Below, piece by piece: positions 49,494-64,000 of a DNA stretch of 64,000 nucleotides. Position 1 is the first letter of the stretch, and the number at the start of each line of letters is the position of its first letter. The position numbers were made by a program, and so were the translations under genes. Under the pieces are notes generated by a model. That model saw nothing but the letters and a program-made list of their open reading frames with translations, was not told the DNA's origin and did no database searches. This DNA comes from Bacillota bacterium (GTDB lineage Bacteria; Bacillota; Dehalobacteriia; Dehalobacteriales; Dehalobacteriaceae): the NCBI GenBank assembly GCA_050952465.1, contig JBMNKZ010000014.1:26613-90612 (forward strand). The letters run 5' to 3'.

Positions 49494-50786
49494 TTACAAT
49501 CCCGCCCGTTCAAAAATATAATCTATATATCTGATATGGTAATCATAGTCAAAAAGCTGATCCACTTCCTCATTGGTAAGGTAGTTCATAATATCTTTAT
49601 CCTGCAAAACAAGATATTCAAAATCCGTCTTTGTTTGCCAGGCATGCAAAGCATTTCTCTGTACCCATTCATAAGCAGTTTCCCTTAAGATACCCTTGTC
49701 CACCAAAGCCAGCATCACCCGTTGTGAGAATACCAGTCCCAAGGTCTTGTCCATATTTTTACGCATATTCTCAGGATAGACATTTAAGTTCTCCATCACA
49801 TTAATAAACAAATGCAGCATGTAATCTAAGATAATGCAACTATCCGGTATAATCACCCTTTCCACTGAGGAATGGGTAATATCCCGTTCATGCCAGAGGG
49901 CTATGTTTTCCATAGCAGCTAAAGCATTTCCCCTAAGAACCCTTGATAACCCAGTGATCCGTTCCACAGTAATGGGGTTTTTCTTATGGGGCATGGCGGA
50001 AGATCCCTTCTGCCCCTTGGCAAAAGCTTCTTCTACCTCCAGAATATCCGTCCGCTGAAGATTTCTAATCTCTGTGGCAAATTTTCCAATAGAACTTCCG
50101 ATTAAAGCCAATGTGGTGATAAATTCTGCATGACGGTCTCTTTGAATTATTTGGGTAGAAACCAGGGCCGGCTTTAAGTCCATTTGACGGCAAACATGTT
50201 CTTCTACATGAGGGTCAATGTTAGCAAAGGTTCCCACGGCACCGGAGATTTTTCCCACAGAAATTACTTCTTTCGCTTTAATCAAGCGCTCAAGACAACG
50301 ATCAACTTCCATAGTCCACAGGGCCATTTTAAAACCAAAGGTTACCGGTTCGGCATGAATCCCGTGGGTACGCCCCACTTCCAAGGTATATTTATATTTC
50401 CGGGCCTTCTCCTCTAAAACATCTCTCAGTTTCCTTAGTCTTGCGATAAGTAATTCTGCGGCTTCTTTCATTTGGGCAGAGAGTGCAGTATCTAAAACGT
50501 CGGAAGAAGTCATTCCCATATGAATATACTTAGATGCTTCTCCCACCTTTTCCCCTACTGCGGTTAAAAAAGCAATCACGTCATGGCGGGTGATCTCTTC
50601 TATTTCTTCAATTCGGGAAATTTCAAAACCCGCCTTTTCTTTAATCTCCAGGAAGTCCTCCCGGGGAATTAAACCCAAATCAGCCATGGCCTCACAAGCA
50701 TAAATCTCTACGTCAAGCATTTTTTGAAAGCGGTTTCTCGGTTCCCATACACCGCCCATTTCCGGTAAAGTATACCGTCCTATCAT
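49494..50786 (-). CDS. purB: Adenylosuccinate lyase
   Basis: 430 aa. GMTSSDVLDT and the signature SSAMPHKKNP. Confidence 0.95.
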   Translation of the reverse strand: MIGRYTLPEMGGVWEPRNRFQKMLDVEIYACEAMADLGLIPREDFLEIKEKAGFEISRIEEIEEITRHDVIAFLTAVGEKVGEASKYIHMGMTSSDVLDTALSAQMKEAAELLIARLRKLRDVLEEKARKYKYTLEVGRTHGIHAEPVTFGFKMALWTMEVDRCLERLIKAKEVISVGKISGAVGTFANIDPHVEEHVCRQMDLKPALVSTQIIQRDRHAEFITTLALIGSSIGKFATEIRNLQRTDILEVEEAFAKGQKGSSAMPHKKNPITVERITGLSRVLRGNALAAMENIALWHERDITHSSVERVIIPDSCIILDYMLHLFINVMENLNVYPENMRKNMDKTLGLVFSQRVMLALVDKGILRETAYEWVQRNALHAWQTKTDFEYLVLQDKDIMNYLTNEEVDQLFDYDYHIRYIDYIFERAGL

Positions 50787-50870: not shown

Positions 50871-51404
50871 TTATTTCATTTCTTCGAGATACTTAGAAAC
50901 TCCTAATTCCTGCAAACGGTAATCTTTCGCCTCTACCTGTTCTGCCATTTCTTTCTTAAACTTAACTAGCTGTTCTTTTATCTCAGGATATTTTAAAGAT
51001 AAAATTTCCGCCGCCAAAATACCGGCATTTTTCGCCCCGTTAATTGAAACTGTAGCCACAGGTATGCCTGGTGGCATCTGTACAATGGAATATAGTGAAT
51101 CGATCCCGTTTAGAGTCGCTGTTTTAATAGGCACGCCAATGACAGGAAGAGTAGTAAAAGCAGCAATCACCCCAGGTAAATGAGCAGCTCCTCCCGCCCC
51201 GGCAATGATTACCTCTATCCCTTTTTCCTCGGCCTGTTCTGCAATCATGGCAGTTTTATGAGGCACCCGGTGAGCAGATGATATATGTACCTGACAGCCA
51301 ATCCCCATTTTATCTAAAAAGTTTACTGCATCCTTCATTACCGGCAGATCCGAATCACTTCCCATTATCACTGCTACCTTAATCCCATTCAATTCTTTTG
51401 CCAC
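50871..51404 (-). CDS. purE: 5-(carboxyamino)imidazole ribonucleotide mutase
   Basis: VAVIMGSDSDLPVM...SAHR.P...AGGAAHLPG. The start is ambiguous, GTG 51404 or TTG 51392. Confidence 0.9.
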   Translation of the reverse strand: MAKELNGIKVAVIMGSDSDLPVMKDAVNFLDKMGIGCQVHISSAHRVPHKTAMIAEQAEEKGIEVIIAGAGGAAHLPGVIAAFTTLPVIGVPIKTATLNGIDSLYSIVQMPPGIPVATVSINGAKNAGILAAEILSLKYPEIKEQLVKFKKEMAEQVEAKDYRLQELGVSKYLEEMK

Positions 51405-51436
51405 CTTTCTTTTAATATCATTTCATTTTTGTTTCA

Positions 51437-51465
51437 AATATATCAATCCTTACTACCAATGTCAA
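51437..51465 (-). promoter_or_regulatory. SigA-type promoter of the pur operon
   Basis: Minus strand reads TTGACA (51460-51465), a 17-nt spacer, then TATATT (51437-51442). It lies about 30 nt upstream of purE. Confidence 0.5.
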
Positions 51466-51471
51466 GAAAAA

Positions 51472-51511
51472 ATACGAACATTAATATATGTTTCTCAATT
51501 AATGTTCGTAT
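51472..51511. promoter_or_regulatory. Inverted pair of PurBox-like sequences (also a hairpin + T-run after the upstream gene)
   Basis: atacgaacattaat-N12-attaatgttcgtat, with perfect 14-nt arms. Each arm contains the ACGAACATT core of the Bacillus PurR box (AWWWCCGAACWWT). It abuts the -35 element. On the minus strand it is followed by TTTTTT. Confidence 0.5.
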
Positions 51512-51539
51512 TATCCCATTCTTTTAATTTTTCTATCTG

Positions 51540-52808
51540 CTAAAGGTGATCAGACCCTCTCATTAATGCCGACTGACGCCCGGTGAACTTCCTTCTCCTG
51601 GGTAGATCCGGCCAAGAAACCTGAGAGCGACCTAATGTCCCAATAAAAGAAGAAAAGGCAATAAATAATAATCCAATTTGAGGTGCCATCGCGGTAAAAT
51701 CAAAAATGCCATGCCCCCAAAACAAAGCCTGTACTGCCGCTAAAAGAGGTGCCAGAGGGCATTTCTCCTGGGACAATTCCCAAAGCTGAGCCAGAAGATG
51801 TCCTTCCATCCAGATAAAAATCAATATCCCTACCGATCCCAGCATCACGGCTAAAGAGATCAACATATTATGAGCATGCAGAACCCGGAGATACTGATAA
51901 ACATTATCATCAGCAAAATAAATCCCCATAATGCCCCATCCGGTAATAGGTTTTTTTAAATACATATTAAAACAATTTTCCCAAATAGCCCACCTAAGAT
52001 CAATGGTTAAAGACAATAAATCTCCTCGGGGGAACCATTCCGAATAGCCGAGAAAAATCAGCAGCCCCACAAACAAGATCAAAATACGCAGTATAAAATG
52101 AAACATCCTGCCTTTTACCAGATCATATACGGTCAAGCCTATTAAAAGCCCGATAAATGCTCCCCGAGAACCAGTCATCACCAAAACAACAATTAGCAGC
52201 AAAAGACTAAAAAAAAGCATATGTCGTTTCTGTCCCTGGGACTTTTCATAGAAATGAAACCCCACCAAAATCATTACCCCGTACCAGGAAGCAGCTAGGT
52301 TAGGATTGCCAAAGGTCCCCGTAATGCGTAAAAGGTTATCATCATTAGGAATCAAGGTAGTTAAACCAAAAAAACATTTCCACCAGGATGAGGCGGGAGT
52401 TATCACATCCAACCCTTCCAGAATACCAATAACAGCTGAAATTAAGGTTAATGAAAATATGTAATAAAGGATTTTTTCAATTTTCTCCGTGGTTTGATAA
52501 TTATGATGTAAAAAAAGACTTACCCCGTAAAAACCAAAAAAAGCAAAGCCAGCGGCAAAGGAGTACCCTTGCCTGTTAATCAGTCCAACTATCAAAGACC
52601 AAAGGAATAACAAGAACATTCCTGTGGTCCAGGTATTCCCCCCATCTATTTGCTTTCTACGCACCAGATGAATTAGAGCTAACATCTGGGGCAGATAAAC
52701 TAGAAAGGGAGAAAAAACAACAAACATATAATTAATTCCCACTCTTATCCCCCATTCACCGAAAATATGGGATTCCTCGACCATAACATAATTACTATTA
52801 TAACGCAA
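51540..52808 (-). CDS. O-antigen ligase (Wzy_C) family membrane protein
   Basis: About 12 TM segments and a central loop with the GSRGAFIGLLIG pattern. The start is uncertain (TTG 52808 or an internal ATG). Confidence 0.65.
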   Translation of the reverse strand: MRYNSNYVMVEESHIFGEWGIRVGINYMFVVFSPFLVYLPQMLALIHLVRRKQIDGGNTWTTGMFLLFLWSLIVGLINRQGYSFAAGFAFFGFYGVSLFLHHNYQTTEKIEKILYYIFSLTLISAVIGILEGLDVITPASSWWKCFFGLTTLIPNDDNLLRITGTFGNPNLAASWYGVMILVGFHFYEKSQGQKRHMLFFSLLLLIVVLVMTGSRGAFIGLLIGLTVYDLVKGRMFHFILRILILFVGLLIFLGYSEWFPRGDLLSLTIDLRWAIWENCFNMYLKKPITGWGIMGIYFADDNVYQYLRVLHAHNMLISLAVMLGSVGILIFIWMEGHLLAQLWELSQEKCPLAPLLAAVQALFWGHGIFDFTAMAPQIGLLFIAFSSFIGTLGRSQVSWPDLPRRRKFTGRQSALMRGSDHL

Positions 52809-53054
52809 CGGTAGAAAATTTTTAGGTTGGAGAAAAATTTTCCTACCTTAGTGCATTTCAACGAGGCAGAAAAATCTTTTTCCATTCCCTAATTCGAGTA
52901 AAAATCTTTTTGGAGAAAAAGTATTTTGGACACAAACTGTGTCAAACCATATTCCTGTTTCATAACATGTACTAAGACAATCAACTAACCACCCGCTCAA
53001 GGTTTATAACCTCTGTTTTTGGTGGTTACGAGATAAGGAAAGGGGGTCTGTGTA

Positions 53055-53213
53055 ATGGGAAGAAGATGTAGAGAAGACCGGGTTGAATCGGTACGGGACA
53101 ATTGCTACGACCGCAACGAAGGAATGTTCGGGAACATTATTTGCTTAATAATTGTATTAATCGTGCTGGAATTTCTGTGCTCACTTTTAGGTGAGGAAGA
53201 ATGTGGTTGCTAA
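53055..53213 (+). CDS. Tiny Cys-rich hydrophobic peptide 1 (YjcZ-like architecture), not in track
   Basis: RBS AAGGGGG, then MGRRCREDRVESVRDNCYDRNEGMFGNIICLIIVLIVLEFLCSLLGEEECGC (52 aa). It is paralogous to the next small ORF. Confidence 0.45.
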   Translation: MGRRCREDRVESVRDNCYDRNEGMFGNIICLIIVLIVLEFLCSLLGEEECGC

Positions 53214-53263
53214 GTCCTAGTCTGTAAGTTCTAAAAATCAATTATTAAAAGGGAGGATAAAAT

Positions 53264-53398
53264 ATGAGTATTCTCGGCTGCTTTGGGGGACATAACGGTT
53301 GCGGCGGTTTTGACGATATCGTTGATTTAATTATCGTTTTAATCGTGCTCCAATTCCTCTGCTCCTGTGTACTTGGCCAACAAAAACATGGCTGCTAA
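53264..53398 (+). CDS. Tiny Cys-rich hydrophobic peptide 2 (YjcZ-like architecture), not in track
   Basis: RBS GGGAGG, then MSILGCFGGHNGCGGFDDIVDLIIVLIVLQFLCSCVLGQQKHGC (44 aa). It shares the IIVLIVL(E/Q)FLCS core and a C-terminal GC with peptide 1. Confidence 0.5.
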   Translation: MSILGCFGGHNGCGGFDDIVDLIIVLIVLQFLCSCVLGQQKHGC

Positions 53399-53441
53399 CA
53401 AAACATTTTGATCTATGAACCTATAAATCAGCGAGTGTCCC

Positions 53442-53485
53442 AGCTGCATCTGTTTTCCAGATGCAGCTTTCTATTTATTTTTTCT
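53442..53485 (+). terminator. Intrinsic terminator after the tiny-peptide pair
   Basis: agctgcatctg-ttttc-cagatgcagct (perfect 11-bp stem) followed by a T-rich tract. Confidence 0.6.
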
Positions 53486-53556
53486 GATCAGATTTTAATT
53501 TAAAGCACCAAAACCTAATAAAAAACATATTATTTAGCGGGGAAGGAAGTGAGATT

Positions 53557-53952
53557 ATGAGCCGCCATCGGCATAAAAGAAGAAAGTCACGGGAAAGAGA
53601 AGAGGAACTAAGAAGATCACAAACAAGCGGAAGGGGCCTTTCTTTGTCATCACTAATTACAAATGTAGACTTTAAAACCTTGTCCGGCCAATTAAGGGAT
53701 ATTGCCGGCTATATGGAAACCTTTAGTCAGATCACAGAACTATTTCAGTTAGCAGATGTCTTTGTTAACCCCAAACAGGGAAAAGGGAAAGGTCAAAGCT
53801 TTAATCTTATGAACATGCTAAAAGATAGAGATTCTCTTAACCAGCTCTTCCAAATGCTTTCACCCAACTTAGGAGAAACCATGAATGACATGCGCTATGA
53901 AAAAAAAGTAGAACCAATAAACGTGGAAACACATAACCCAGAAAAGAAGTAA
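53557..53952 (+). CDS. Hypothetical protein with highly basic N-terminus
   Basis: 131-aa ORF with RBS GGAAGGAAG. It begins MSRHRHKRRKSREREEELRR. I recognise no family. Confidence 0.5.
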   Translation: MSRHRHKRRKSREREEELRRSQTSGRGLSLSSLITNVDFKTLSGQLRDIAGYMETFSQITELFQLADVFVNPKQGKGKGQSFNLMNMLKDRDSLNQLFQMLSPNLGETMNDMRYEKKVEPINVETHNPEKK

Positions 53953-53976
53953 GGAACGGTTAACACCGTTCCTTAC
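53949..53976. terminator. Bidirectional hairpin shared by convergent small genes
   Basis: gtaaggaacggt-taac-accgttccttac, a perfect 12-bp stem. It overlaps the stop codon of the + gene and abuts the stop of the - gene. Confidence 0.5.
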
Positions 53977-54192
53977 CTATTTTCTGGGAATTTTTACTCC
54001 ATTTTTAGCTGCCAACCTACTCATGAGCTTTTTTAAATTCTCCCGATTAGAATTTGTTACTCCCCCTGATTTTTCCATTTCGTTAATAATTTCATTAATT
54101 ATGTTTACATTTCCCTCGGATAAGGCACCTTGATAGTTATTGATTAAGGCCCTAAGCTCTGAAAGTGATTTGACTTTGGGAATTGATCTCAT
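53977..54192 (-). CDS. Hypothetical small protein
   Basis: 71-aa ORF with RBS AAGGAGGGG upstream. Helical and charged. I recognise no family. Confidence 0.45.
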   Translation of the reverse strand: MRSIPKVKSLSELRALINNYQGALSEGNVNIINEIINEMEKSGGVTNSNRENLKKLMSRLAAKNGVKIPRK

Positions 54193-54260
54193 TTAAATCC
54201 CCTCCTTTTGTAATGCCTGTCACCTTATCTTATGTTAGGCATAGTACAAAAGGTTCCTCT

Positions 54261-55130
54261 TTAATAGTCATTGTTTTCATATGTATCATCATTTTTGCCT
54301 AAATCGTAAATAAATGTTTTTTCATCAATTTGTCTAAAGCCATTTCTTAGCCAAAAACCAATGGTCTCAGAAGTGGAAACCACAGAGATTTTGCTCATAC
54401 TATTTTCTTTACTCCAATGAATCAAAAGTCTAATGATCATCATACCCAATCCCTGATCCCTTTGGGCCTTCGGAATGCGGAGAAAAAATATTTGTAAGAT
54501 TTTTTCCTTAATCCCAATGGTTAGTAAGAAAGGGTCTTTTTGGCCTCGAACATGAAAGTTTATCACTAGGTTTTCAGATTCCCCGGAAACAGTTTTGCTA
54601 AGAGGTTTCTGGATCACGTTTTCAAGATCCTTCTTCAGAGAGGATATATTAAACTCTCCCCCATTGGTTACCACATTTCGTGCTTCCCGTTTGCGCATTA
54701 AAGCTGTTTCCCATCTATGAAAAAAATATAATGCGATGTATGCCAAAACTGCCGATAGTACAGCCGGAAAATACATGCCGCTTCCGCTGGCCAAGCCTAA
54801 GCCGCAGACCAGCCACAGGGTGGTGGCGGTGGTCAGCCCCCTAATATTAACGCCCTCTTTCCAAATCACACCTGCCCCGATAAAACCCATCCCGGAAATC
54901 ACCTGAGCGGCTAAGCGGGCTGGGTCCTTTCTGACCACAGGAAGATAGTCAAAATCGCTAAACCCATAAAGTGAAACAATCATAAAAAGAGCACTGGCCA
55001 AACATACCAGAGAATGGGTTCTGGCTCCAGCCGGTTTATTATGTAAATGGCGCTCTGAACCTATTAGACCTCCGATAATTAAGGCAAATATCAACCTAAG
55101 TGCTAATTCTAATTGAAGGTGAATGTTCAT
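54261..55130 (-). CDS. MgtC/SapB-family membrane domain fused to a GNAT-like C-terminal domain
   Basis: The N-terminal LIFALIIGGLIGSERHLHNKPAGARTH is the MgtC signature. The C-terminal RDQGLGMMIIRLL...ETIGFWLRNGF resembles GNAT motif A/B. Confidence 0.65.
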   Translation of the reverse strand: MNIHLQLELALRLIFALIIGGLIGSERHLHNKPAGARTHSLVCLASALFMIVSLYGFSDFDYLPVVRKDPARLAAQVISGMGFIGAGVIWKEGVNIRGLTTATTLWLVCGLGLASGSGMYFPAVLSAVLAYIALYFFHRWETALMRKREARNVVTNGGEFNISSLKKDLENVIQKPLSKTVSGESENLVINFHVRGQKDPFLLTIGIKEKILQIFFLRIPKAQRDQGLGMMIIRLLIHWSKENSMSKISVVSTSETIGFWLRNGFRQIDEKTFIYDLGKNDDTYENNDY

Positions 55131-55257
55131 AACATTTCTCCCTCATCCGCTGTTTTTGATTTGGCCACAACATTTTGGCCAGCCTAGTCTTCAGAATCAA
55201 TTGATTATCAATATCTTAACCAGCACGAGCCAAAAGAATTAAAGCTATATAGATATA

Positions 55258-55947
55258 TTAGGCCTTTGAAGTAATAAAACCATAAATCAAAACCGGCAAA
55301 GCACAAGCCCAGGGGATTACTTTCCCTAAAAATTCTCCCGTTAATTGGGTTAAATTTAGTGCTGAATCATTAAAGATCATATTTACCGCAGTATGAGCAA
55401 GTACCGTGGCACCAACGTAGATAATGATGGGATACTTCCCCATCATTGTTGCCAGCCAAGTAGATCCCCAGACCAAGATGGGAATTGAAAGGAGCAAACC
55501 AAATATAACCAGCCATACTTGCCCCTGAGCTGCCCCTGCAACCCCCATCACATTATCAAAAGCCATAGAAATGTCAGCAACAACAATAGTACCTACTGCA
55601 CTCCAAAATTTGTTAGAGGAACGTACATTAGCCCCCTCTTCAACCTTTGCATTTAACAATTTATATGTAATGAAGATTAGGATCAGTCCCCCAATGGCAC
55701 TTAAGTATTTTATTGTAAGTAAGTATACGGCAAATATGGTAAATGTCACCCGGAGAATAATGGCACCCCCGGCACCAAGAATTGCCGCTTTTTTTTGCAT
55801 CGGGCGGGGCAAATCCCGAATAGCGAGGCCAATCACGGCAGCATTATCCCCACTCAACACCAAATCGATTATGGTAATAGAAAAAATAGCTGCCACCGTT
55901 TGCCATAACCAAGACGGAACTGCCAAAAGTGCCAAAATGCTCTCCAA
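55258..55947 (-). CDS. TerC/YjbE-family integral membrane protein
   Basis: Two DN-containing repeats (LSGDNAAVIGLA and AFDNVMGVAG) and 7 TM segments. Confidence 0.85.
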   Translation of the reverse strand: MESILALLAVPSWLWQTVAAIFSITIIDLVLSGDNAAVIGLAIRDLPRPMQKKAAILGAGGAIILRVTFTIFAVYLLTIKYLSAIGGLILIFITYKLLNAKVEEGANVRSSNKFWSAVGTIVVADISMAFDNVMGVAGAAQGQVWLVIFGLLLSIPILVWGSTWLATMMGKYPIIIYVGATVLAHTAVNMIFNDSALNLTQLTGEFLGKVIPWACALPVLIYGFITSKA

Positions 55948-56177
55948 AATAATTCCTCCTCAAGTTAATATAAGTCATTCCTAAAATCCATCCTTTGACT
56001 ACATCCATCCTATGATTATCCAGAACAACTTATTCCTAAAAGGTCAAACCCTTTTTTCCAGATAATACTTATATAAAATTTTAAAATCATTATTCAAAGT
56101 AATCACTTGGTCAAGTTTCTAATTTCGTCCATTCAACATATTGTAAATTAAAACTTAAACAGGAGGTATTAGATCTT

Positions 56178-57314
56178 ATGGAAACACGTCAACAGGTACC
56201 GCCTTGCCCAAATGGTACCATCTACACAATTAGGTCAGGAGATACATTTTTCAGCTTGGCCAGTCGCTTTAACACAAGCGTAGATGCGATTGTTGCTGCA
56301 AACCCCAATGTTGATCCCAACAACCTGCAGGTAGGTCAGCAAATCTGCATCCCGGTTCCGCCTACACCAGGTCCATGCCCCGGCGGTACTATTTATACTA
56401 TTAGAGCAGGTGACACCTTATTCGCCCTGGCTAATCGTTTTAACACTACCGTCAACGCCATTCTCGAGGCTAACCCAGGCCTTGACCCTGACAACCTGCA
56501 GGTAGGACGAAGAATCTGCATCCCAGTTCCGCCTACACCAGGTCCATGCCCGGGTGGCACCATTTATACCATTAGAGCTGGGGATACCCTATTTGCTTTG
56601 GCTAATCGCTTTAACACCACTGTCAATGCCATTGTTGAGGCTAACCCTAACATTGACCCCAACAGACTGCAGGTAGGCCAGCAGATCTGCATCCCGGTTC
56701 CACCTACACCTGAATGCCCCGGTGGTACTATTTATACTATCCGGGCAGGTGACACCTTATTTGCTCTGGCTAACCGGTTTAACACTACCGTTAATGCCAT
56801 TCTCCGGGCAAACCCAGGTCTTGACCCCAACAGACTGGAGGTAGGCCAGAGAATCTGCATCCCGGTTCCGCCTGCACCTGAATGCCCGGGACGCACCTAT
56901 ACTATCAGAGCAGGAGATACTTTCTTTAGCATTGCTCGGCGCTTTGGCTTTACTGTGCAGCAGCTATTAGATGCTAACCCCGATGTTGATCCCGATCAAC
57001 TGCAAGTCGGCCAGGTAATATGCTTGCCGCCCTCTCCAAACGGGCCCGTCCCATGTCCTGGAGGGAGAATTTATGTAATAAGAGCCGGCGATACTTTAGT
57101 GGGCATTGCGAACCGAGCAGGGATTACCCTAAGACAATTGCTGGCAGCTAATCCCCAAATAACGGATCCGGATGTTATTTTTATCGGTCAGTCCATTTGT
57201 ATCCCCGGTAACATGAGAGGAGATATTGGGGAAAACTATGCAGATTCCCCATATCAGGGCCAGATGTTTTGTCCCTTTGCACCATTCTGCTCTATGTTTT
57301 TCAGACCTTTCTAA
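56178..57314 (+). CDS. Six-LysM-domain protein without signal peptide (spore-coat/cortex-associated candidate)
   Basis: Six repeats of CPGGTIYTIRAGDT(L/F)F.(L/I)A.RF..TV..(I/L)..ANP..DP..LQVGQ.ICIP, joined by VPPTP linkers. No N-terminal hydrophobic leader. Confidence 0.8.
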   Translation: METRQQVPPCPNGTIYTIRSGDTFFSLASRFNTSVDAIVAANPNVDPNNLQVGQQICIPVPPTPGPCPGGTIYTIRAGDTLFALANRFNTTVNAILEANPGLDPDNLQVGRRICIPVPPTPGPCPGGTIYTIRAGDTLFALANRFNTTVNAIVEANPNIDPNRLQVGQQICIPVPPTPECPGGTIYTIRAGDTLFALANRFNTTVNAILRANPGLDPNRLEVGQRICIPVPPAPECPGRTYTIRAGDTFFSIARRFGFTVQQLLDANPDVDPDQLQVGQVICLPPSPNGPVPCPGGRIYVIRAGDTLVGIANRAGITLRQLLAANPQITDPDVIFIGQSICIPGNMRGDIGENYADSPYQGQMFCPFAPFCSMFFRPF

Positions 57315-57349
57315 TAGTTCTGTAGTTGATGCTTTGAAAACATCATTTA

Positions 57350-57370
57350 GGGGCGATTCATGAATCGCCC
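57350..57370. repeat. REP-like palindromic element
   Basis: ggggcgattcatgaatcgccc, downstream of the LysM gene. Confidence 0.6.
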
Positions 57371-57400
57371 AATGAGTTGAAACCGTTAGCTAACATGAAA

Positions 57401-57437
57401 GGGTTATGATGGATATTAGTCCCCATAACCCTTTTTT
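57401..57437 (+). terminator. Hairpin terminator between convergent LysM gene and lasso ABC exporter
   Basis: gggttatg-N15-cataaccc followed by TTTTTT. Confidence 0.5.
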
Positions 57438-57477
57438 CGTGTTCCCGCTGCTTTTTTATTCCACTTACCTCCACCTT

Positions 57478-59196
57478 TTATTTTAAATTCAAAGTCAGAT
57501 CCTCATAATCTCTTATTTCTTTTACAGTCCCTTGATCCAAGACAATGATCTGATCGGCATTTTTTATGGTAGAAAGCCTATGGGTAATTATTAAAATCGT
57601 CAATTTCCCATGTAAACTTTCAATAGCTTTTTGAATCCGCTTTTCATTCTCCCCATCCAATGAGTTTGTTGCCTCATCCAGAATAAGCAAAGCCGGTTTT
57701 CTGAGTAATGCCCTTGCTAAAACAATCCGCTGCCTTTCGCCCCCTGAAAGACGCACTCCTCTGTCCCCAACCCGTGTGTCCAAGCCTTCAGGTAAACGGG
57801 ATATAAAATCATCTATCGCCGCCAATTTCAAGGCCTGCCAGATTTCTTTTTCCTTTGCTGAAGGATGAGACCAAAGCATATTATCCCGAAGGGAAGCATT
57901 GAATAAAAAAGCATCTTGAGGTACATAACCAATATTCTTGCGCCATAAATGAACATTTATATCCTTCAAGGGTACCCTATCAACTAAGATCAACCCTTGT
58001 TGGGGAGTAAGTATTCCGGTGATTAAATCTGCTACCGTGCTTTTCCCTGAGCCGGATACCCCAACAAGGGCAGTAGTGCTTCCATTAGGAATGGTAAAAG
58101 ATAAATTTTTAACCGCATAAATAGGATTCTCTGAGTTGGAGTTATAACTAAAGAAAACATTTTTAAATTCTATGCCTTCCTGCAAATCCTTTTGGATTAA
58201 AGATTGTCCTTTAAGATAAATTTCTTTTTCTTTCATACACTCCCTTTCAAAATCCATGACCCCCAAAAAAGCCGGGAGCATCATGGCCACATGCTGCAAC
58301 CCCCCTTGAAAAGAAGAAAATCTAGGCCAGAGACGGGCAAAAATCACAACGATCAACAAGATTTCCTCAGGTTGGGTATGAAAAAAATTTACCATACCAT
58401 AAAAAAAGATGCTGATAAAAACCGCCGCGCCGGCCTTATATAGCATCTGAGTCCCGCTTTGAATCCGATTAAATTGGACAAAATTATTTTCAATATTTTT
58501 TCTTAATTCAATGAATTTAACGATATGCATTTCTTCCATACCACAGCTTTTTACTTCCTTAATCCCGTTTAGATGCTCAGTGATGGCAAAGAAAAGATCC
58601 CGGTTATGTTTGGATAAAGTTGCCCCCATTTCCTTGACTTGGCGCACGTGTTTTTGCATTAAAACGGAAAAGATCAACCCTCCCCCGATGACCACCAAGG
58701 TTAAGATGGGAGACAAGAAAAAAGCAATGGCTATTTGAATCACTCCTATTATTACAATAGCGATTAATTGAAAAAGAAACTGGGTCCCACCGGCCACCCG
58801 CCCTAGTTCTGCAATTAAGATATTGGTTAGGTCAGACTTTTTTCTGGCAGCTAAATAACCCCATTTCGCATAGGCCAATCCTTGAAAAATCCTAATACTT
58901 AAAAAGCTATGAAAAGATTGCTGAATCCGCGTATTCAGATTGGATTGGTAGCGTTGTAATCCACTTTGCGTCAGAATTAACCCAATATAAATTAAAAGCA
59001 CTACCGGCAAGCTAAGAATCAGGTCTAATGGGGCAGAAGACTCTTGTCCGATACCGGCGAAATGAAGAAGCGGTATTAAAAGTAATATACCAATCCCCTC
59101 AAGAGTACCCAGAACTACCATTAAAAACACATTAAGAATAATCTTCCCGCGGGCAAACCGGAATAATTCTTGAATATAGTTACTAAATACCTTCAC
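57478..59196 (-). CDS. ABC transporter permease/ATPase (lasso peptide exporter/immunity, McjD-like role)
   Basis: An N-terminal 6-TM domain, Walker A GVSGSGKST, signature LSGGERQR and Walker B LLILDEATN. GTG start 3 nt after the upstream stop. Confidence 0.85.
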   Translation of the reverse strand: MKVFSNYIQELFRFARGKIILNVFLMVVLGTLEGIGILLLIPLLHFAGIGQESSAPLDLILSLPVVLLIYIGLILTQSGLQRYQSNLNTRIQQSFHSFLSIRIFQGLAYAKWGYLAARKKSDLTNILIAELGRVAGGTQFLFQLIAIVIIGVIQIAIAFFLSPILTLVVIGGGLIFSVLMQKHVRQVKEMGATLSKHNRDLFFAITEHLNGIKEVKSCGMEEMHIVKFIELRKNIENNFVQFNRIQSGTQMLYKAGAAVFISIFFYGMVNFFHTQPEEILLIVVIFARLWPRFSSFQGGLQHVAMMLPAFLGVMDFERECMKEKEIYLKGQSLIQKDLQEGIEFKNVFFSYNSNSENPIYAVKNLSFTIPNGSTTALVGVSGSGKSTVADLITGILTPQQGLILVDRVPLKDINVHLWRKNIGYVPQDAFLFNASLRDNMLWSHPSAKEKEIWQALKLAAIDDFISRLPEGLDTRVGDRGVRLSGGERQRIVLARALLRKPALLILDEATNSLDGENEKRIQKAIESLHGKLTILIITHRLSTIKNADQIIVLDQGTVKEIRDYEDLTLNLK

Positions 59197-59199
59197 TGT

Positions 59200-60468
59200 T
59201 TATTTTCTCCTCGTATCACCGATAATTCTTCTTTTTAGCCAAGTCATCGGCCGAATGAAATAATATAAAGGATATAAGGGGTCAGGGAGAGCTATTAGCT
59301 TAAAGTCCCTTTCGATGGGTTGAATTAGGGAATGGAGATAGGAAAACTTAAGTTTCCAGCCGCTCCTGATTCGGAAACGATAACCGTGGGTCTCTATAAA
59401 ACTTTTCCAGTAGGAAAAGCCAATTTCTTTTGGTGCCTCCTTCGCCCGGGAAATGAGACAGTCAATGACTTCTTCAGCCAGTCTTACCGCCTTTTTGTCT
59501 TTAATAGCAGCCTCAAGTATTTTATCAGGTAAGTCCACGTGAAAGAGCTGATCCAATAACAAGAAGGTTTGATGGACAAGAATTTTCATCCCTGCACACT
59601 CCGCCAATCTCATGATCTTGTCCCAATCAACTTCCGTAACAAGGAGAAATTTTTCCATATCTATGAGCCAACGGAGCCGCTCCCATTTGTGGCTACCCCC
59701 ATGTACCACAAGATAGAGAAACCACTCCTCATCGGGCAACACAGGAACGGAAAAGCCGCTAATCTCTACTGTACCCAGGTCTTTATCTCTGGAAAATGTC
59801 GAAAACCTTAGATCAATTTGATGCATTTTCCAATGAAGTTCCAGACAGGTTCCCCGCTCTTGATGAAGATAAAGATTGTGATGATATTTATTTAGATACA
59901 CCTTTGTTTGGCGGGGAGTAAAGGAGATCCCCCTCGTTCTTTGTTCATAGCCTTCTTCTCGTAAAATATTTTCCGCTTTTTCCAGATCCTTTAAAGGTAC
60001 TAATAGATCAATATCCTTTGACATTCTTAGGGAAACATCCCCATATATTTTCTGAGCTAAAGGTGCTCCTTTTAAGACCAGGGTAGAAATCCCCTTTTCT
60101 TGAAAAATACGCAGGATCCTAATCATCTCCCCCGTGAGACCTATGGATCTAATGGTATTTTCCTCATATTTCAATTTCAAAAAATGCATCACATGGGGAG
60201 AGATTGACTGAATTTTTAGGTTGCTTAACGTTTTATATACCATGGGAAATACCCGGTGATGCCAAGTCATCTTTAAGAACAAGTCCCAATCTACCGGCCG
60301 TGATAAGAAAAATTCAACTTTTTCCCTTGACTGAGCAATATGAAACTCATTAGAATCATTAGCATTAATAGGCGCACCGGATTTACCAAACTCATTTATG
60401 CCCCGGGAAATTTCCATTAATAGGAGCAGTTCCGGAGTAAATCCTTTAAGCCCCATACCATAAGACAA
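59200..60468 (-). CDS. Nucleotidyltransferase-family protein (lasso tailoring candidate)
   Basis: 422 aa. LKG...YGD...SKDIDLLV is the pattern of the 'uncharacterised nucleotidyltransferase' family often found in lasso/RiPP clusters. It sits between the B2 and ABC genes. Confidence 0.6.
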   Translation of the reverse strand: MSYGMGLKGFTPELLLLMEISRGINEFGKSGAPINANDSNEFHIAQSREKVEFFLSRPVDWDLFLKMTWHHRVFPMVYKTLSNLKIQSISPHVMHFLKLKYEENTIRSIGLTGEMIRILRIFQEKGISTLVLKGAPLAQKIYGDVSLRMSKDIDLLVPLKDLEKAENILREEGYEQRTRGISFTPRQTKVYLNKYHHNLYLHQERGTCLELHWKMHQIDLRFSTFSRDKDLGTVEISGFSVPVLPDEEWFLYLVVHGGSHKWERLRWLIDMEKFLLVTEVDWDKIMRLAECAGMKILVHQTFLLLDQLFHVDLPDKILEAAIKDKKAVRLAEEVIDCLISRAKEAPKEIGFSYWKSFIETHGYRFRIRSGWKLKFSYLHSLIQPIERDFKLIALPDPLYPLYYFIRPMTWLKRRIIGDTRRK

Positions 60469-60513
60469 AGAACCACCTCTTATCTCTCACAGGTATAACG
60501 TCTTATTAAATGT

Positions 60514-60972
60514 TTAACCGCGGGTAATTCTTTCCTCCCCAAAAGAAGATAAGGAAAGATAATCGTTCCATCCCTGATTCCCGGTAATAATCATATTCCC
60601 CGCCCTAAGCCAGGCATGGGCTGCCATCTCCTCCACGGTTTCCGGTTTATTAACGCCTAAATACAGGGTATTACTAATCCCTTTTCTTCTCAAAAGAATT
60701 TTTCCTGTAATCCCCTGCACTAAGCATTTACTCTCCCAAGGGGTATGCTTGCTTGCCCAAAGAATTATTCGGCTAATTCTTAAACAAATAACCCTCTGAG
60801 CAGGTGTCAGCTTTTGACCGGATTCGACCCCTTGCTCCCCTAAAAAGTGCGCGATCCACCTGAAAGGAAGGCACAAAACAGCCAAGCGTACCAATCCAGT
60901 TAAGAAAAAAATCTGAAAAAATTCCCACCTTTCCTGCCCAGGCAAAAGCAGCCACTTTTTAATCTTGCTCAT
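60514..60972 (-). CDS. Lasso peptide leader peptidase B2 (transglutaminase-like Cys protease)
   Basis: About 152 aa with the catalytic-type Cys context ESKCLVQG and His context HAWL. It overlaps the B1 3' end. Confidence 0.8.
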   Translation of the reverse strand: MSKIKKWLLLPGQERWEFFQIFFLTGLVRLAVLCLPFRWIAHFLGEQGVESGQKLTPAQRVICLRISRIILWASKHTPWESKCLVQGITGKILLRRKGISNTLYLGVNKPETVEEMAAHAWLRAGNMIITGNQGWNDYLSLSSFGEERITRG

Positions 60973-61255
60973 CAAGGCAAATTATTCCTTCCCGGTGCAT
61001 TTTATTTAAAAAAAGAGAAACATCCCTGAGACAGGTTTCTTCTTCCACCTGGTACTCTTTCATTAATTCGTCCATTAATTCTTGAATAGTGATAGGCCGA
61101 GCCAGCAACTCCCAGATAGAGCTTCCTACCCCATTAAGGCAGTAATATTTCCCTCTTTTGATACTCATCATTGCTTTTTCGCCTTCTAGATCGCTGCTGA
61201 TAATTCCGTCCTGCCGAGAAATTATAGTTTCTCTGGAGATTTTTGCTCCTTTCAT
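60959..61255 (-). CDS. Lasso peptide B1 (PqqD-like RRE leader-binding protein)
   Basis: About 98 aa. Y.LNGVGSSIWELL....TIQELMDEL..EY.V..E....DV..FL..M...G is the PqqD-family pattern. ATG 61255 lies 1 nt after the kinase stop. Confidence 0.75.
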   Translation of the reverse strand: MKGAKISRETIISRQDGIISSDLEGEKAMMSIKRGKYYCLNGVGSSIWELLARPITIQELMDELMKEYQVEEETCLRDVSLFLNKMHREGIICLDEQD

Positions 61256-61256
61256 G

Positions 61257-62204
61257 CTAAACAATCCCCCTATTTACCAGATCTTGTTCTATTAAAGTTT
61301 TAATTTCTTTGACTGTTAACAAGTGCGCCGGCCTCATAACTCTGGAAACAGCCACTTTCTCAGCCAAAGCAACTGCTTGGTGAAAAATATTTTCTGCATA
61401 TCCCATTACATCTGCAAACCCATATCTGTAAACATTATTTAGAATCAATTCCAATTTATCTACACCAGAAAGGGCAAAAAGAGATACTTTTTCGCAATTT
61501 GCTTTTCTCATTTCATAAATGGCAGTTAGTCTTTGAGGCATCTGGCAAAAGTCTCTTTCTAAAGGGACAGCATACTTATCAATCTGCCCGCTAATCTGGG
61601 AAAAATGATCAGCCTTTTCCCCCAAGGATTCCAGGCTGTCTTGCCACAGTTTCTGCTGAGGATAGGAGGGGTAGACCCAGGGATCACCTTCCCCGTTAAA
61701 ATAAATGGGGGCAATATCATCGGTTAGAATCTCAGACCCATCCTGACGAAAAATGGCAGCTAAAGTTGACTTCCCGGCTTTTTGGAGGCCTGTGATGATA
61801 AAACATTTTTCTTTAACCTTAACAGCACTACCATGGATGGGAAGAATGCCTCTTTGCCAAAGCAGGGCTCCAAAAGCCGATCCCAAAAGAAATAAACGTA
61901 CTTCCTTCATTTCCGCCGTTGCAGCCGGCTCAATAATAATCTCCCGGCCTTTTTTTATCAGGTAGCTGCCTACATTCCTAATCCGGAGTATTAATTGATC
62001 TTTTTTGCCTTGATAATATCCTTTGTTTTTCCATGCTTCGCCAGAATCCTTGGGCACTTTGCCAAGGGTGATTAACACCTCGGATGCCCCTATTGGGCAG
62101 GTCTTAAGTTCCGGCACCGGAATCTCTGATGCAATCTTTACCCCGAAAGCCTGATAGCAATATGATGCTGTATCTGGATAGGTATTCTCATGAAGTATAT
62201 GCAT
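61257..62204 (-). CDS. HPr-kinase-like serine kinase (lasso precursor kinase candidate)
   Basis: 315 aa. HGSAV...FIITGLQKAGKSTLAA is a P-loop like that of HprK-family kinases. Its start overlaps the precursor 3' end by 17 nt. Confidence 0.7.
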   Translation of the reverse strand: MHILHENTYPDTASYCYQAFGVKIASEIPVPELKTCPIGASEVLITLGKVPKDSGEAWKNKGYYQGKKDQLILRIRNVGSYLIKKGREIIIEPAATAEMKEVRLFLLGSAFGALLWQRGILPIHGSAVKVKEKCFIITGLQKAGKSTLAAIFRQDGSEILTDDIAPIYFNGEGDPWVYPSYPQQKLWQDSLESLGEKADHFSQISGQIDKYAVPLERDFCQMPQRLTAIYEMRKANCEKVSLFALSGVDKLELILNNVYRYGFADVMGYAENIFHQAVALAEKVAVSRVMRPAHLLTVKEIKTLIEQDLVNRGIV

Positions 62205-62325
62205 CTATATCCTCTTGAAAGGCAATGTCAACTAAACCATACCCGCCCCCATTTTCTGTCTTTCTTATCTCTATTTCGGTAATCTGGGGACTGATCCATG
62301 GTTTTTTTATTGTTTCTTGAGCCAT
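62188..62325 (-). CDS. Lasso peptide precursor (45 aa), not in ORF track
   Basis: RBS AGGAGGG, 8 nt, then an ATG giving MAQETIKKPWISPQITEIEIRKTENGGGYGLVDIAFQEDIDAYTS. The leader carries aromatic-xx-P-x-I...T-x. The core is Gly-rich with Asp 8-9 residues in, and the C-terminal residue is Ser. Confidence 0.75.
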   Translation of the reverse strand: MAQETIKKPWISPQITEIEIRKTENGGGYGLVDIAFQEDIDAYTS

Positions 62326-62330
62326 TTTTA

Positions 62331-64000
62331 TTACCCTCCTTCTCCCTTGACTACACCCAAAAACCTGCTAAAAATAATACTTCTAAGTAGCATGGTGACA
62401 CTAGGATCGGTAAAAGCTATTGAGCTAACCAAATTCATGCTCTGGCCTTTTTTGTGAATCCTAGCTACATCAAGGTATTTTCTTTCTTCAGGCAGTTGAC
62501 CGATTTTCTTAATTTCCTGTAGGATTTCTTTTTCCAAAGGTAAGAGCCTTTGTACATAATCTGCACTTTGCAGACCACGTACCTGATCATTTAATCTAAT
62601 TTTATCCGGTAGGATTCCCGCCATCGCCCGTCTGATTAAGGATCTCTCCTGCCCCTTTCGGATAAATTGTTCCACAGGCACGCTCAGGCAAAACTCTATT
62701 ACCCTTTTATCAATGGCAGGATCCCTGATGATCAGGTTGCGGGATAATGCTATTTTGGTATAAACAGCACTCAAATGACTTAAATGATAAGGAGATAGCA
62801 TCATCTGCCGCTGGTGAAAGGCATTTAATTTTTTTTGATAATAAGGGTCATAATTGAAACTCTTAAACCTCTTCTTCATTCCTATAAGATGGGCAAAGTC
62901 TGGGTTTACCGGGGATAATGCAAAAGGTCTTTCCCAATTGGCTTCCCCCCGGTGCAGCAATAACTGAATTTCATAGGGAACTAAGGATTTAGCCACATCC
63001 AAACCAAGTTTCAGAGGATGTTTATTCTTTACCTTCCCAAAAGCCCTGATCTCCTGAATCAGTTTAATCCATTTACCGGAAAGAAAAAAAGAGATACTGC
63101 ATGGAAGAAAACTTCCGTAAGAAATAGTGGTATTCCCCACTCCCCCGGTGAGCATCGTCCCTACTCCCTTTTTTTGGGCCTTTTCTAAAATCCCGTCAAT
63201 CCAAAAAAGATTCTCACATATTTTATAGGGTTGTTCCAAAACCTTTAAATAATGTGCTGTATCACTTAGGGCATTTCTACCGGGAAAGGAATGGTAGTTA
63301 AAGAGAATGTTTTCTTTGTTTTCTCTCATCACCTCAATATAGGGGGTTTCGTCGGCAATTCGACTTCGAGGAATTCCGGTACTATCAAAACCCTTGATGG
63401 GAATAGCCGTAAAAGCATGGAGTTCTTTGTTTGCCTTTTTTAACTCATCTGCAGCTAAACAGGCTATAGCGGCAGAATCAAGCCCCCCGCTGAGCATGAT
63501 CCCAAGGGGTTTGTTGCTTCGAAGCCGGCACCTTACAGCTTGTCCTAACACCTGCCGAAAAGCTTCCTCATATTCCCTGTCTGATTTAAGTTTTAATTCT
63601 TTTTGCTTTTCTATGACCCAGTATGCCTGCTTTTTTATGCTGCCTTTACTGACTGTCAGACTATGTCCTGACGGCAGCATTAGGATATCTCGGTAAAGAG
63701 TCAGTTCCGGATCTATCTGATGTATTACTGAGGGAATGGAAAGAAAGTCACAAATCCATGCTTCTGAATAGTCCCGGCTAATTTCTTCTAGGGCAAATAA
63801 AGGGTTAATCAAAGTAGCAAAGGCAAATAACCGAGGGGAAGCGTAATAATACAAGGTTCGGTTTCCGGTGTGGTCTACGGCACAAAACATTTCCTTTCGT
63901 TTAGTGTCCCAGATGGCAAAGGCAAAATCCCCTAATAGATAGGAGGGGCATTTCCTGCCCCATTTCTCATAGGCCCGGAGTATCAGGTCACTATCAGGAA
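62331..64000 (-). CDS. Lasso peptide cyclase (asparagine-synthetase-like, C protein); 5' end outside the window
   Basis: PP-loop motif MLSGGLDSAAIA. The frame stays open upstream of the first Met to the window edge (...GDFAFAIWDTKRKEMF...), matching the AsnB-like N-domain. Confidence 0.85.
   Translation of the reverse strand, partial: PDSDLILRAYEKWGRKCPSYLLGDFAFAIWDTKRKEMFCAVDHTGNRTLYYYASPRLFAFATLINPLFALEEISRDYSEAWICDFLSIPSVIHQIDPELTLYRDILMLPSGHSLTVSKGSIKKQAYWVIEKQKELKLKSDREYEEAFRQVLGQAVRCRLRSNKPLGIMLSGGLDSAAIACLAADELKKANKELHAFTAIPIKGFDSTGIPRSRIADETPYIEVMRENKENILFNYHSFPGRNALSDTAHYLKVLEQPYKICENLFWIDGILEKAQKKGVGTMLTGGVGNTTISYGSFLPCSISFFLSGKWIKLIQEIRAFGKVKNKHPLKLGLDVAKSLVPYEIQLLLHRGEANWERPFALSPVNPDFAHLIGMKKRFKSFNYDPYYQKKLNAFHQRQMMLSPYHLSHLSAVYTKIALSRNLIIRDPAIDKRVIEFCLSVPVEQFIRKGQERSLIRRAMAGILPDKIRLNDQVRGLQSADYVQRLLPLEKEILQEIKKIGQLPEERKYLDVARIHKKGQSMNLVSSIAFTDPSVTMLLRSIIFSRFLGVVKGEGG

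Follow-up and report, generated by a model that had tools for sequence, protein, structure and literature searches.

A predicted paeninodin/pseudomycoidin-type lasso peptide operon in an uncultured Bacillota genome

Paeninodin-type clusters are known from hundreds of Bacillota genomes (PMC13381572). The cluster padeCAKB1B2D of Paenibacillus dendritiformis C454 (Zhu et al., 2016, cited in PMC9266682) has C, A, K, B1, B2, and D in common with the locus reported here. PadeK phosphorylates the C-terminal Ser of the precursor before the leader is removed, PadeK carries the same His-Lys-Asp-Asp motif as our K, and the paeninodin leader combines WxxP with Thr at position -2, as found here. However, the pade cluster is without an N gene (PMC6993621), and its core differs from ours. 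The same seven-gene order and the same gene families are found in psmCAKB1B2ND of Bacillus pseudomycoides DSM 12442 (Zyubko et al., 2019; PMC6993621), where B2 and D likewise flank an N gene of the PF14907 type. The pseudomycoidin precursor also ends in Ser, and the DD metal site of the psm kinase and the DxD site of PsmN are common to K and N of the window, i.e., the whole 64,000-nt stretch that was analysed. The two clusters differ in host, psm belonging to Bacilli whereas ours comes from a Clostridia-like MAG, and the window enzymes are only ~30-40% identical to those of Bacilli-type clusters. They differ also in product: the nine-residue ring of pseudomycoidin joins Ala1 to Glu9, whereas a ring of Asn1 to Asp9 is predicted here, in a core that is unrelated to pseudomycoidin and would have Asn as first residue and Asp as acceptor.

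Two further systems bear on the comparison. The bsf cluster of Bradymonas sediminis FA350, from a proteobacterial lineage, likewise has seven genes for a lasso peptide, K and N among them, carries the same kinase motif, and has a B1 that stimulates the kinase; its precursor, however, has Ile at -2, a YxxPxL leader, a phosphorylated ring Ser3, and a C-terminal Asp (PMC10368454). The LPP clusters of Bacilli, whose kinases put several phosphates on one Ser, lack the cyclase and B2, and have a SipW-like signal peptidase, a YxxP leader (the WxxP and YxxP motifs being used here as defined in that study), and phosphorylation at core Ser3 (PMC13381572).

Layout, gene families, and flanks of the cluster

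We read positions 57478-64000 (minus strand) as a complete, apparently intact lasso peptide operon of the paeninodin/pseudomycoidin type, C-A-K-B1-B2-N-D, and put the probability of this reading at roughly 0.85. This kind of lasso cluster is already well known, while its peptide product is undescribed. The host is an uncultured Bacillota MAG whose nearest relatives are Clostridia and Peptococcaceae. The features are as follows:

lasC, 62331..64000, minus strand: predicted ATP-dependent lasso macrolactam (isopeptide) cyclase
lasA, 62188..62325, minus strand: 45-aa precursor
lasK, 61257..62204, minus strand: predicted HPr-kinase-like peptide kinase
lasB1, 60959..61264, minus strand: PqqD-like RiPP recognition element, predicted leader-binding chaperone
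lasB2, 60514..60975, minus strand: transglutaminase-like Cys protease, predicted to remove the leader
lasN, 59200..60468, minus strand: PF14907 (NTP_transf_5) Pol-beta-fold nucleotidyltransferase-like tailoring enzyme, counterpart of PsmN
lasD, 57478..59196, minus strand: fused TMD-NBD ABC exporter, predicted to export the product and possibly to provide self-protection
hairpin pair, 57350..57431, minus strand: likely operon terminator, from the RNA fold of the lasD-LysM spacer

The genes follow one another in the order C, A, K, B1, B2, N, D, with C cut by the window end: its frame is open up to the edge, and ~105 N-terminal codons lie beyond it, the full-length protein being 660 aa (locus L086, same contig). 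A gap of 5 nt separates C from A, A and K overlap by 17 nt, K and B1 overlap by 8 nt (or are 1 nt apart with the ATG chosen by the gene caller), B1 and B2 overlap by 17 nt, or 14 nt, and gaps of 45 and 3 nt follow between B2 and N and between N and D, respectively. B1 probably starts at the ATG at 61255, giving a protein of 98 aa, which is the length of the gene call in L086. The first-pass annotation had described an uninterrupted, translationally coupled series of seven minus-strand genes, overlapping or at most 5 nt apart except for the 45-nt gap between B2 and N; we recovered all seven ORFs in place, and the junction distances agree. All ORFs of the cluster are intact, with profile matches of near full length, and the gene order CAKB1B2ND, that of psm, was found at 26 of 80 related genome loci.

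Functional assignments that had been made by eye for all genes were reproduced with HMM, profile, and motif comparisons. Within the window, lasC matched PF00733 (Asn_synthase; E 2e-29), with NF033535 as its best NCBIfam match. The full-length protein, composed of GATase_6/7 and Asn_synthase domains and containing the PP-loop SGGLDS noted at first reading, scored 449 bits against this lasso cyclase model (E 2.7e-134) vs. 155 bits against the true AsnB model, a score that lies below the 525-bit cut-off at which NCBI applies the NF033535 name. B1 matched PF05402 (E 1.8e-18) and NF033536, lasso_PqqD_Bac (99.6 bits; cut-off 80), and B2 matched PF13471 (E 8.5e-21) and NF033537, lasso_biosyn_B2 (86.5 bits; cut-off 33). 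The anticipated placement of C, B1, and B2 in the lasso families was thus obtained, above cut-off for B1 and B2 and, for C, with NF033535 by far the best model despite the score below its cut-off. The lasD product matched ABC_membrane and ABC_tran, resembles MsbA and HepA-type exporters, and occupies the cluster position of psmD (PMC6993621).

At the 3' end of the operon, lasD and a LysM gene are convergent and separated by a 163-nt spacer. The fold of 57315-57480 (minus strand) contains two stable hairpins (z = -3.9 vs. shuffles), one at 57401-57431 followed by UUUCAUGUU and one at 57350-57370 followed by UAAAUGAUGUUUUC. This pair is likely the operon terminator, judging from the modelled fold; a simple terminator scan did not flag it. 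A promoter scan returned 22 sites (shuffles, 14.8 +/- 4.1), none of them convincing within the window, and is uninformative because the 5' end of the operon lies outside. No RNA family was found by Rfam over 54000-64000. Upstream of C there was nothing lasso-related, and the genes present there (ThiS-like, DUF1858, DUF3108-like, DUF4846, and an ABC uptake system) were rejected as extra members of the cluster.

The cluster had also been thought more AT-rich than the neighboring pur and gcv genes, in keeping with horizontal acquisition. Its GC content is indeed numerically lower (41.1%; pur genes, 44.8%; gcv genes, 43.5%; window average, 42.3%), but 20% of the segments of equal size elsewhere do not exceed it, and the neighboring 51000-57477 stands at 41.4%. 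Since the GC3 of the cluster genes (0.39-0.47) equals that of the pur/gcv housekeeping genes (0.37-0.47), we rejected horizontal transfer as an explanation drawn from base composition.

The precursor and its predicted core

The 45-aa precursor consists of a predicted leader, MAQETIKKPWISPQITEIEIRKTE (residues 1-24; 62254-62325), and a predicted core, NGGGYGLVDIAFQEDIDAYTS (residues 25-45; 62191-62253). A strong GGAGGG Shine-Dalgarno sequence lies 8 nt 5' of its ATG, and the ORF at 62188-62325 ends in ...AYTS, as expected from the earlier report of a C-terminal Ser. Relatives of the precursor were found as uncalled ORFs adjoining kinase homologues, those in loci L001, L082, and L003 all ending in Ser, and the three closest precursors (window, L001, and L082) share NGGGYG[LW][VF]DIAFQ. 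When the 45-aa sequence was searched against 5.8 billion clustered proteins, it retrieved only itself, and it was not found in the literature searched, which bears out the first impression of an undescribed core.

The register of the core can be read from the family. The leader motif is W10-I-S-P13, i.e., WxxP rather than YxxP, and in 37/37 family precursors, the window's included, Trp and Thr are spaced 13 residues apart and the C-terminal residue is Ser; Asp stands at core position 9 in 35 of the 37. In the window precursor, ...RKT-E/NGGGYGLVD... (predicted cut at the slash), Thr23 falls at -2 and Asp at core position 9. These positions, together with the gene families, the catalytic motifs, and the conserved architecture, are established directly. 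How often lasso peptides begin with Asn is not stated in the literature that we searched, so we took a count from the fetched loci: 8/37 precursors have Asn as their predicted first core residue, among them those of five loci from Bacilli, with cores of the NGPGNANAD or NGKSSKSND type. We know of no characterized lasso peptide that starts with Asn1.

If B2 instead cut after Asn25, the core would be GGGYGLVDIAFQEDIDAYTS, with a canonical Gly1, an eight-residue Gly1-Asp8 ring, and Thr at -3. Gly is the classical first lasso residue and is required at position 1 by MccJ25 (PMC8498205), an eight-residue ring is permitted, and an Asp8 ring is the prediction for the relative in L003. We nevertheless consider this cut unlikely. 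With Thr at -2, at its invariant distance from Trp, 35 of the 37 family precursors place Asp exactly at position 9, a rule that the window peptide fits only if Asn is residue 1, and Asn directly after Thr-x recurs in the precursors counted above, including those of Bacilli. Moreover, the homologous position in L003 is Cys followed by Glu, and shifting the cut by one residue would give an implausible Glu1. The predicted product therefore remains, on our reading of the register, NGGGYGLVDIAFQEDIDAYTS with an Asn1-Asp9 lactam, a phosphorylated Ser21, and a possible N-dependent addition. Ser21 is the sole Ser of the core and position 3 is Gly; with neither Ser nor Thr there, a Ser3 site of the Bsf/LPP type is disfavored.

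A linear, polyphosphorylated peptide of the LPP kind, or a decayed and non-functional remnant of a lasso cluster, might also be envisaged. K, the RRE, N, and an MsbA-like pump occur in LPP and paeninodin clusters alike (PMC13381572), and genes have been lost among the relatives of the present locus: L001 is without B2 between B1 and N, L082 has an unrecognised 157-aa ORF in place of N, and L084 reads K-B1-B2-N-D with C absent nearby. Yet in the window the cyclase and B2 are both present, full-length, and intact, no ORF is interrupted, no SipW-like signal peptidase occurs in the cluster or the 8 kb upstream, the leader bears the WxxP mark of paeninodin, and the Asp9 acceptor is in register, with Gly at core position 3. 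We therefore rejected an LPP-type or decayed cluster, which we regard as highly improbable.

The kinase and the nucleotidyltransferase-like protein

As a single sequence, K fell below the Pfam and NCBIfam cut-offs: Pfam at default thresholds returned no match, and Hpr_kinase_C appeared only sub-threshold, at E up to 5. A profile of the family, however, matched the HPr kinase/phosphorylase structures 2qmh and 1jb1 (E 8e-7). Among the homologues of lasK, of which we found 1215, a set of 23 has H124, G139, G144-K145-S146, and D162-D163 invariant, with the spacing of the BsfK motif H148-G163-K169-S170-D186-D187 (PMC10368454); this motif belongs to kinases tested by mutagenesis, namely BsfK (PMC10368454) and PsmK, at D158/D159 (PMC6993621). 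Because of the family profile and the invariant motif, we assigned K as HPrK-like, and the original label of an HPr-kinase-like protein, weak for the single sequence, becomes clear at the level of the family. The Walker A sequence, GLQKAGKS, is without the middle Gly of GxxGxGKS, and the equivalent change in BsfK, G166A, is tolerated (PMC10368454). The C-terminal Ser of the precursor is the target of PadeK-type kinases (PMC6993621; PMC9266682), and by homology K is predicted to place phosphate on the side chain of this residue. The literature drawn on in the first pass for such Ser kinases and for a Bacillus nucleotidyltransferase is real (PMC6993621; PMC9266682).

N starts at a TTG with a AGAGGTGG Shine-Dalgarno sequence and matched PF14907 over positions 2-248 of the 249 in the profile (E 1.7e-61). 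K133, G134, D152xD154, H256, and D270 are invariant. No PDB entry was retrieved when N was searched by sequence. Its AlphaFold model (mean pLDDT 88.6) had MenT1, LnuA, ANT(2'')-Ia, TM1012, and FKRP as best Foldseek folds, all of them weak matches (query TM 0.24-0.33; identity 10-20%) confined to a catalytic domain of ~180 residues. In the model, a nucleotidyltransferase fold was confirmed. In the psm system of B. pseudomycoides, hexosylation of the phosphoserine requires PsmN (PMC6993621; PMC9266682), a reaction known only from psm expressed in E. coli, and PsmN is inactivated by D134A/D136A, within the same kind of DxD motif as D152/D154 of N (PMC6993621). PsmN may do no more than supply substrate to a host glycosyltransferase (PMC6993621). 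LppN was inactive in B. subtilis.

It is possible, though doubtful, that N genuinely transfers nucleotidyl or phospho-alcohol groups rather than sugars, working in a complex with B2 on the leader-bearing precursor. It could transfer NMP onto phosphoserine, giving a peptide-NDP-like intermediate, or a phospho-sugar or phospho-alcohol from an NDP-donor, as in FKRP/LicD-type enzymes. The fold matches point this way, being adenylyl- and nucleotidyltransferases (MenT1, LnuA, ANT(2'')-Ia) together with FKRP, a CDP-ribitol-using ribitol-phosphate transferase, as does the invariant G[GS]...DxD signature of the Pol-beta type, but these structural matches are weak and cover the catalytic domain only. 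In the psm study itself, an E. coli glycosyltransferase was left open as the source of the hexose (PMC6993621; PMC9266682). Against a nucleotidyl or phospho-alcohol transfer, the only masses measured, +162 and +324 Da, are those of hexoses and not of NMP adducts (PMC6993621). An association with B2 is suggested by the locus of the closest kinase relative, where B2 and N are fused in one 549-aa protein, but this fusion was seen on a single assembled 3.7-kb contig and may be an assembly or sequencing error. Given this natural fusion, we offer as a conjecture, which we think rather unlikely, that N, instead of tailoring late and on its own, acts within the B1/B2 leader-processing complex on phosphorylated precursor and builds on the C-terminal Ser a phosphodiester or pyrophosphate cap that locks the thread, via Pol-beta-fold, FKRP/LicD-like or nucleotidyl-transfer chemistry. 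If true, the Clostridia clade with the Asn1 core could become a tractable second system for the PsmN/LppN/BsfN reaction.

Proposed biosynthesis and significance

Returning to the lasso operon, we infer by homology each chemical step of its pathway, and likewise where the core starts (Asn1) and what N adds. B1, the RRE protein, would bind the 45-aa precursor via the WxxP motif of its leader, and K would phosphorylate the side-chain hydroxyl of Ser45 while the leader is still attached, perhaps adding more than one phosphate. B2 together with B1 would then cleave after Thr23-Glu24, and C would adenylate core Asp9 and link it to the new amino group of Asn1. The resulting lasso would have a nine-residue ring and a threading, acidic 12-residue tail, NGGGYGLVD-IAFQEDIDAYTS. 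N, with its Pol-beta fold and DxD metal site, would extend the phosphoserine, with one or two hexoses if PsmN is taken as the model, and D would export the product. Since pseudomycoidin without the K and N modifications was a branched cycle and not a threaded lasso (PMC6993621), threading is not assured here. Clusters of this kind are often silent, and for paeninodin and pseudomycoidin no antibacterial effect was seen (PMC6993621).

The cluster leaves the understanding of paeninodin/pseudomycoidin-type systems unchanged. To our knowledge, experimental work on the psm-type subfamily has so far been confined to Bacilli; the locus places the complete C-A-K-B1-B2-N-D architecture in an uncultured lineage resembling Clostridia/Peptococcaceae, and adds the undescribed core peptide plus two relatives. 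Two minor leads open to testing are the B2-N fusion of a relative and the Asn1 start predicted here, which is met repeatedly in the family. The cluster also provides a further test case for what the PF14907 "nucleotidyltransferase" does to phosphoserine, and for whether a bulky phosphoserine cap keeps the lasso threaded.

Gene order, boundaries and base composition

The seven minus-strand ORFs that the first-pass annotation had read as a lasso-peptide cluster were present at 57478-64000, and our results confirm the cluster as real and correctly read and support its interpretation, except for an argument from base composition.

Genes of the cluster, from C to D
62331 to beyond 64000, minus strand: C, lasso cyclase; frame open up to the window edge
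62188-62325, minus strand: A, precursor, 45 aa
61257-62204, minus strand: K, HPrK-like kinase, 315 aa
60959-61264, minus strand: B1, RRE
60514-60975, minus strand: B2, leader protease
59200-60468, minus strand: N, nucleotidyltransferase-like enzyme, 422 aa
57478-59196, minus strand: D, exporter, 572 aa

An exact look-up of the precursor retrieved the same contig extended upstream (L086; cluster genes at 8013-14848), in which full-length C has 660 aa; ~105 of its N-terminal codons therefore fall outside the window. From C to D the junctions are a gap of 5 nt, overlaps of 17, 8 and 17 nt and then gaps of 45 and 3 nt, in agreement with the tight coupling and single 45-nt B2-N gap described earlier. 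Public gene calls use ATG starts that leave 1 nt between K and B1 and shorten the overlap of B1 with B2 to 14 nt. A GGAGGG Shine-Dalgarno sequence lies 8 nt 5' of the precursor ATG and, downstream of D, folding of the 163-nt spacer before a convergent LysM gene gave two stable hairpins (z = -3.9) that likely mark the operon end. Upstream of C, beyond the window, L086 carries a ThiS-like gene, DUF1858, DUF3108-like and DUF4846 genes and an ABC uptake system; since no lasso-related gene was found there, the cluster comprises seven genes. The ThiS/ubiquitin-like gene (75 aa; L086 7655-7882), 130 nt upstream of the cyclase and outside the window, is probably unrelated, since it is not kept beside the cluster in relatives.

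The convergent gene (56178-57314, plus strand) encodes a 378-aa protein with six near-identical LysM repeats joined by Cys/Pro-rich linkers (CIPVPPTPGPCPGGTIYTIRAGDT...), and the DNA beneath is a long tandem repeat. At 54261-55130 (minus strand), adjoined by a TerC-family gene (55258-55947), is an MgtC-family membrane protein whose C-terminal extension of ~130 residues looks like an extra soluble domain.

The cluster had also been considered more AT-rich than the neighbouring pur and gcv genes, as would fit horizontal acquisition. These neighbours were found (purB/F/M/N/H/D at 43402-50786; gcvT/PA/PB at 34837-39227), and the GC content of the cluster (41.1%) is indeed below theirs (44.8% and 43.5%, respectively). 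However, the whole window has 42.3% and the adjoining 51000-57477 41.4%, and a GC content no higher than that of the cluster is seen in 20% of windows of its size. Since third-position GC is indistinguishable between the cluster (0.39-0.47) and the pur/gcv genes (0.37-0.47), horizontal transfer was rejected on this measure, and a recent acquisition is not supported by base composition. A patchy phyletic distribution has been reported for the paeninodin-like family (PMC13381572), which is an argument of a general kind rather than evidence from the present locus.

Assignment of the processing enzymes and the kinase

HMM searches placed B1 and B2 in the lasso families above curated NCBI cut-offs, B1 with 99.6 bits for NF033536 (lasso PqqD-type chaperone; cut-off 80) and B2 with 86.5 bits for NF033537 (lasso B2 protease; cut-off 33). 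Full-length C, which has GATase and Asn_synthase domains and the PP-loop SGGLDS, matched the lasso isopeptide cyclase model by far the best (449 bits, E 2.7e-134, vs. 155 bits for asparagine synthetase), but did not reach the 525 bits that this model strictly requires for naming. D is an ABC exporter with fused domains.

As a single sequence, K gave weak matches (Hpr_kinase_C, E 0.025; HprK_rel_B, E 1e-4). A profile of 23 of its 1215 homologues matched the HPr kinase/phosphorylase crystal structures 2qmh and 1jb1 (E 8e-7) with the catalytic segment covered, and H124, G139, G144-K145-S146 and D162-D163 were invariant in the alignment, supporting the assignment of the kinase as HPrK-like. The motif spacing equals that of BsfK, the kinase of the Bradymonas sediminis (bsf) cluster, in which H148-G163-K169-S170-D186-D187 has been validated by mutation (PMC10368454). 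In the window and its two closest relatives, Lys replaces the middle Gly of the Walker A motif (residues 139-146, window 61765-61788), which reads GLQKAGKS in this clade and GxxGxGKS in the other family members. The equivalent change in BsfK, G166A, is tolerated (PMC10368454).

The precursor, its predicted core and its relatives

The small ORFs lying beside kinase homologues were extracted from 80 genome loci and a handful of metagenome contigs, yielding 37 precursors alignable in register. All 37 end in Ser, since they were chosen by that criterion. In 37/37, the Trp of the WxxP motif lies exactly 13 residues ahead of a Thr and, with this Thr set as the canonical -2, Asp occupies core position 9 in 35. 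WxxP, as opposed to YxxP, has been described as the distinctive motif of paeninodin-like precursors (PMC13381572). The window precursor is in exact register (W10-I-S-P13 and T23 of the precursor; Asp9 and Ser21 of the core) and fits exactly a predicted cleavage after E24, giving the core NGGGYGLVDIAFQEDIDAYTS.

Classical lasso peptides start with Gly1, beside which an Asn start looks odd. Asn is the second commonest predicted first core residue in our sample (8 of the 37); several Bacillaceae, for instance, have NGPGNANAD cores. The three closest precursors (those of the window, L001 and L082) share NGGGYG[LW][VF]DIAFQ, followed by a variable acidic tail that always ends in Ser. Together, the register, the frequency of Asn and this conservation favour a predicted Asn1-Asp9 ring over Gly1-Asp8. 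For the Asn1-Asp9 lasso, the calculated [M+H]+ is 2186.9876 without modification, 2266.9540, 2346.9203 and 2426.8866 with one, two and three phosphates, and 2429.0068 and 2591.0596 with one phosphate plus one and two hexoses; for the Gly1 form, the series begins at 2072.9447. Ser21 is the sole Ser of the core and position 3 is Gly, so the Ser3 phosphorylation site of the Bsf and linear polyphosphorylated peptide (LPP) systems is unavailable (PMC10368454, PMC13381572).

Five Bacilli loci (L039, L043, L055, L059 and L068; about 3700-7700) have two tandem cyclase genes upstream of the kinase, and their long precursors (32-42-residue cores, two Cys, NGPGNANAD start) may be disulfide-bridged family members.

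Proteins identical to those of the cluster are deposited as MGI6686523-MGI6686528 from a "Bacillota bacterium" MAG, annotated as hypothetical or at family level. The nearest K and N relatives are from Clostridia MAGs, Dehalobacterium, Candidatus Formimonas warabiya and Desulfofarcimen, i.e., Peptococcaceae-like Clostridia. Among complete Bacilli genomes, 344 of 9173 have paeninodin-like clusters, with K and N termed their typical secondary modification enzymes (PMC13381572), and our kinase scan alone confirmed 558 stretches of reference genomes as related. No second copy of the precursor was found among 5.8 billion clustered proteins, nor its core string in the literature searched. The cluster type is well described; the peptide itself is therefore undescribed, as the first-pass annotation had thought probable.

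Likeness to the pseudomycoidin system and the possible role of N

The order C-A-K-B1-B2-N-D is that of psmCAKB1B2ND, the pseudomycoidin cluster of Bacillus pseudomycoides (PMC6993621), and was found in 26 of the 80 genome loci, all 26 from Bacilli. In the systems studied, the kinase acts on the side chain of the C-terminal Ser with the leader still attached, sometimes adding several phosphates, before leader removal by B1 and B2 and ring closure by C (PMC6993621, PMC9266682). [quoted passage not shown]

Related loci vary in gene content. In L001 (3471-4975; Clostridia bacterium AS08sgBPME_346), the closest genome relative (C 72% and precursor 65% identical), N directly follows B1 with a 4-nt overlap, B2 is absent there and the contig ends soon after; this recalls pseudomycoidin made without B1 and B2. 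In L082 (69-830 and 4787-5260), C is immediately preceded by a gene for a Y1 (IS200-like) transposase, B2 is shortened (121 aa) and N's place is taken by a 157-aa ORF with no Pfam match, which looks like cluster decay or rearrangement. In L084 (3808-8515; K-B1-B2-N-D), neither a cyclase nor a recognisable precursor was found in the 3.8 kb upstream, which would mean either that the cyclase lies elsewhere or that these enzymes serve a non-lasso purpose.

PF14907 (NTP_transf_5) matched N end to end (E 1.7e-61), with K133-G134, D152xD154, H256 and D270 invariant. Its AlphaFold model is confident (mean pLDDT 88.6), and the catalytic domain resembles the small Pol-beta-fold transferases MenT1, LnuA, ANT(2'')-Ia and TM1012 and, more weakly, FKRP, a ribitol-phosphate transferase using CDP-ribitol. 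With TM 0.24-0.33 on the query and an identity of 10-20%, these weak matches inform on the fold and metal site but not on the reaction. The phosphoserine receives one or two hexoses only when PsmN is present, an addition abolished by mutation of PsmN D134/D136 (PMC6993621, PMC9266682), although PsmN may just supply substrate to a host glycosyltransferase (PMC6993621). LppN showed no activity in B. subtilis. An insertion of ~18 residues in N, FGKSGAPINANDSNEFHIA (residues ~24-43; window 60340-60400), is modelled at low confidence and was not found in any aligned homologue.

In L081 (1260-2909; run ERR10905742), the metagenome contig that carries the kinase's closest relative (69% identity), a full B2 and a full N form a single 549-aa protein. 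Its residues 1-152 share 63% identity with B2 of the window, and residues 150-547 share 58% with N of the window. This fusion suggests that B2 and N work together, possibly as a complex, although on one 3.7-kb contig it may be an assembly error. The fused pair corresponds to the window's only loose junction, the 45-nt gap.

The chief interest of the cluster is as an extra substrate/enzyme set for working out the N reaction and for testing whether a phospho-linked cap locks the lasso thread.
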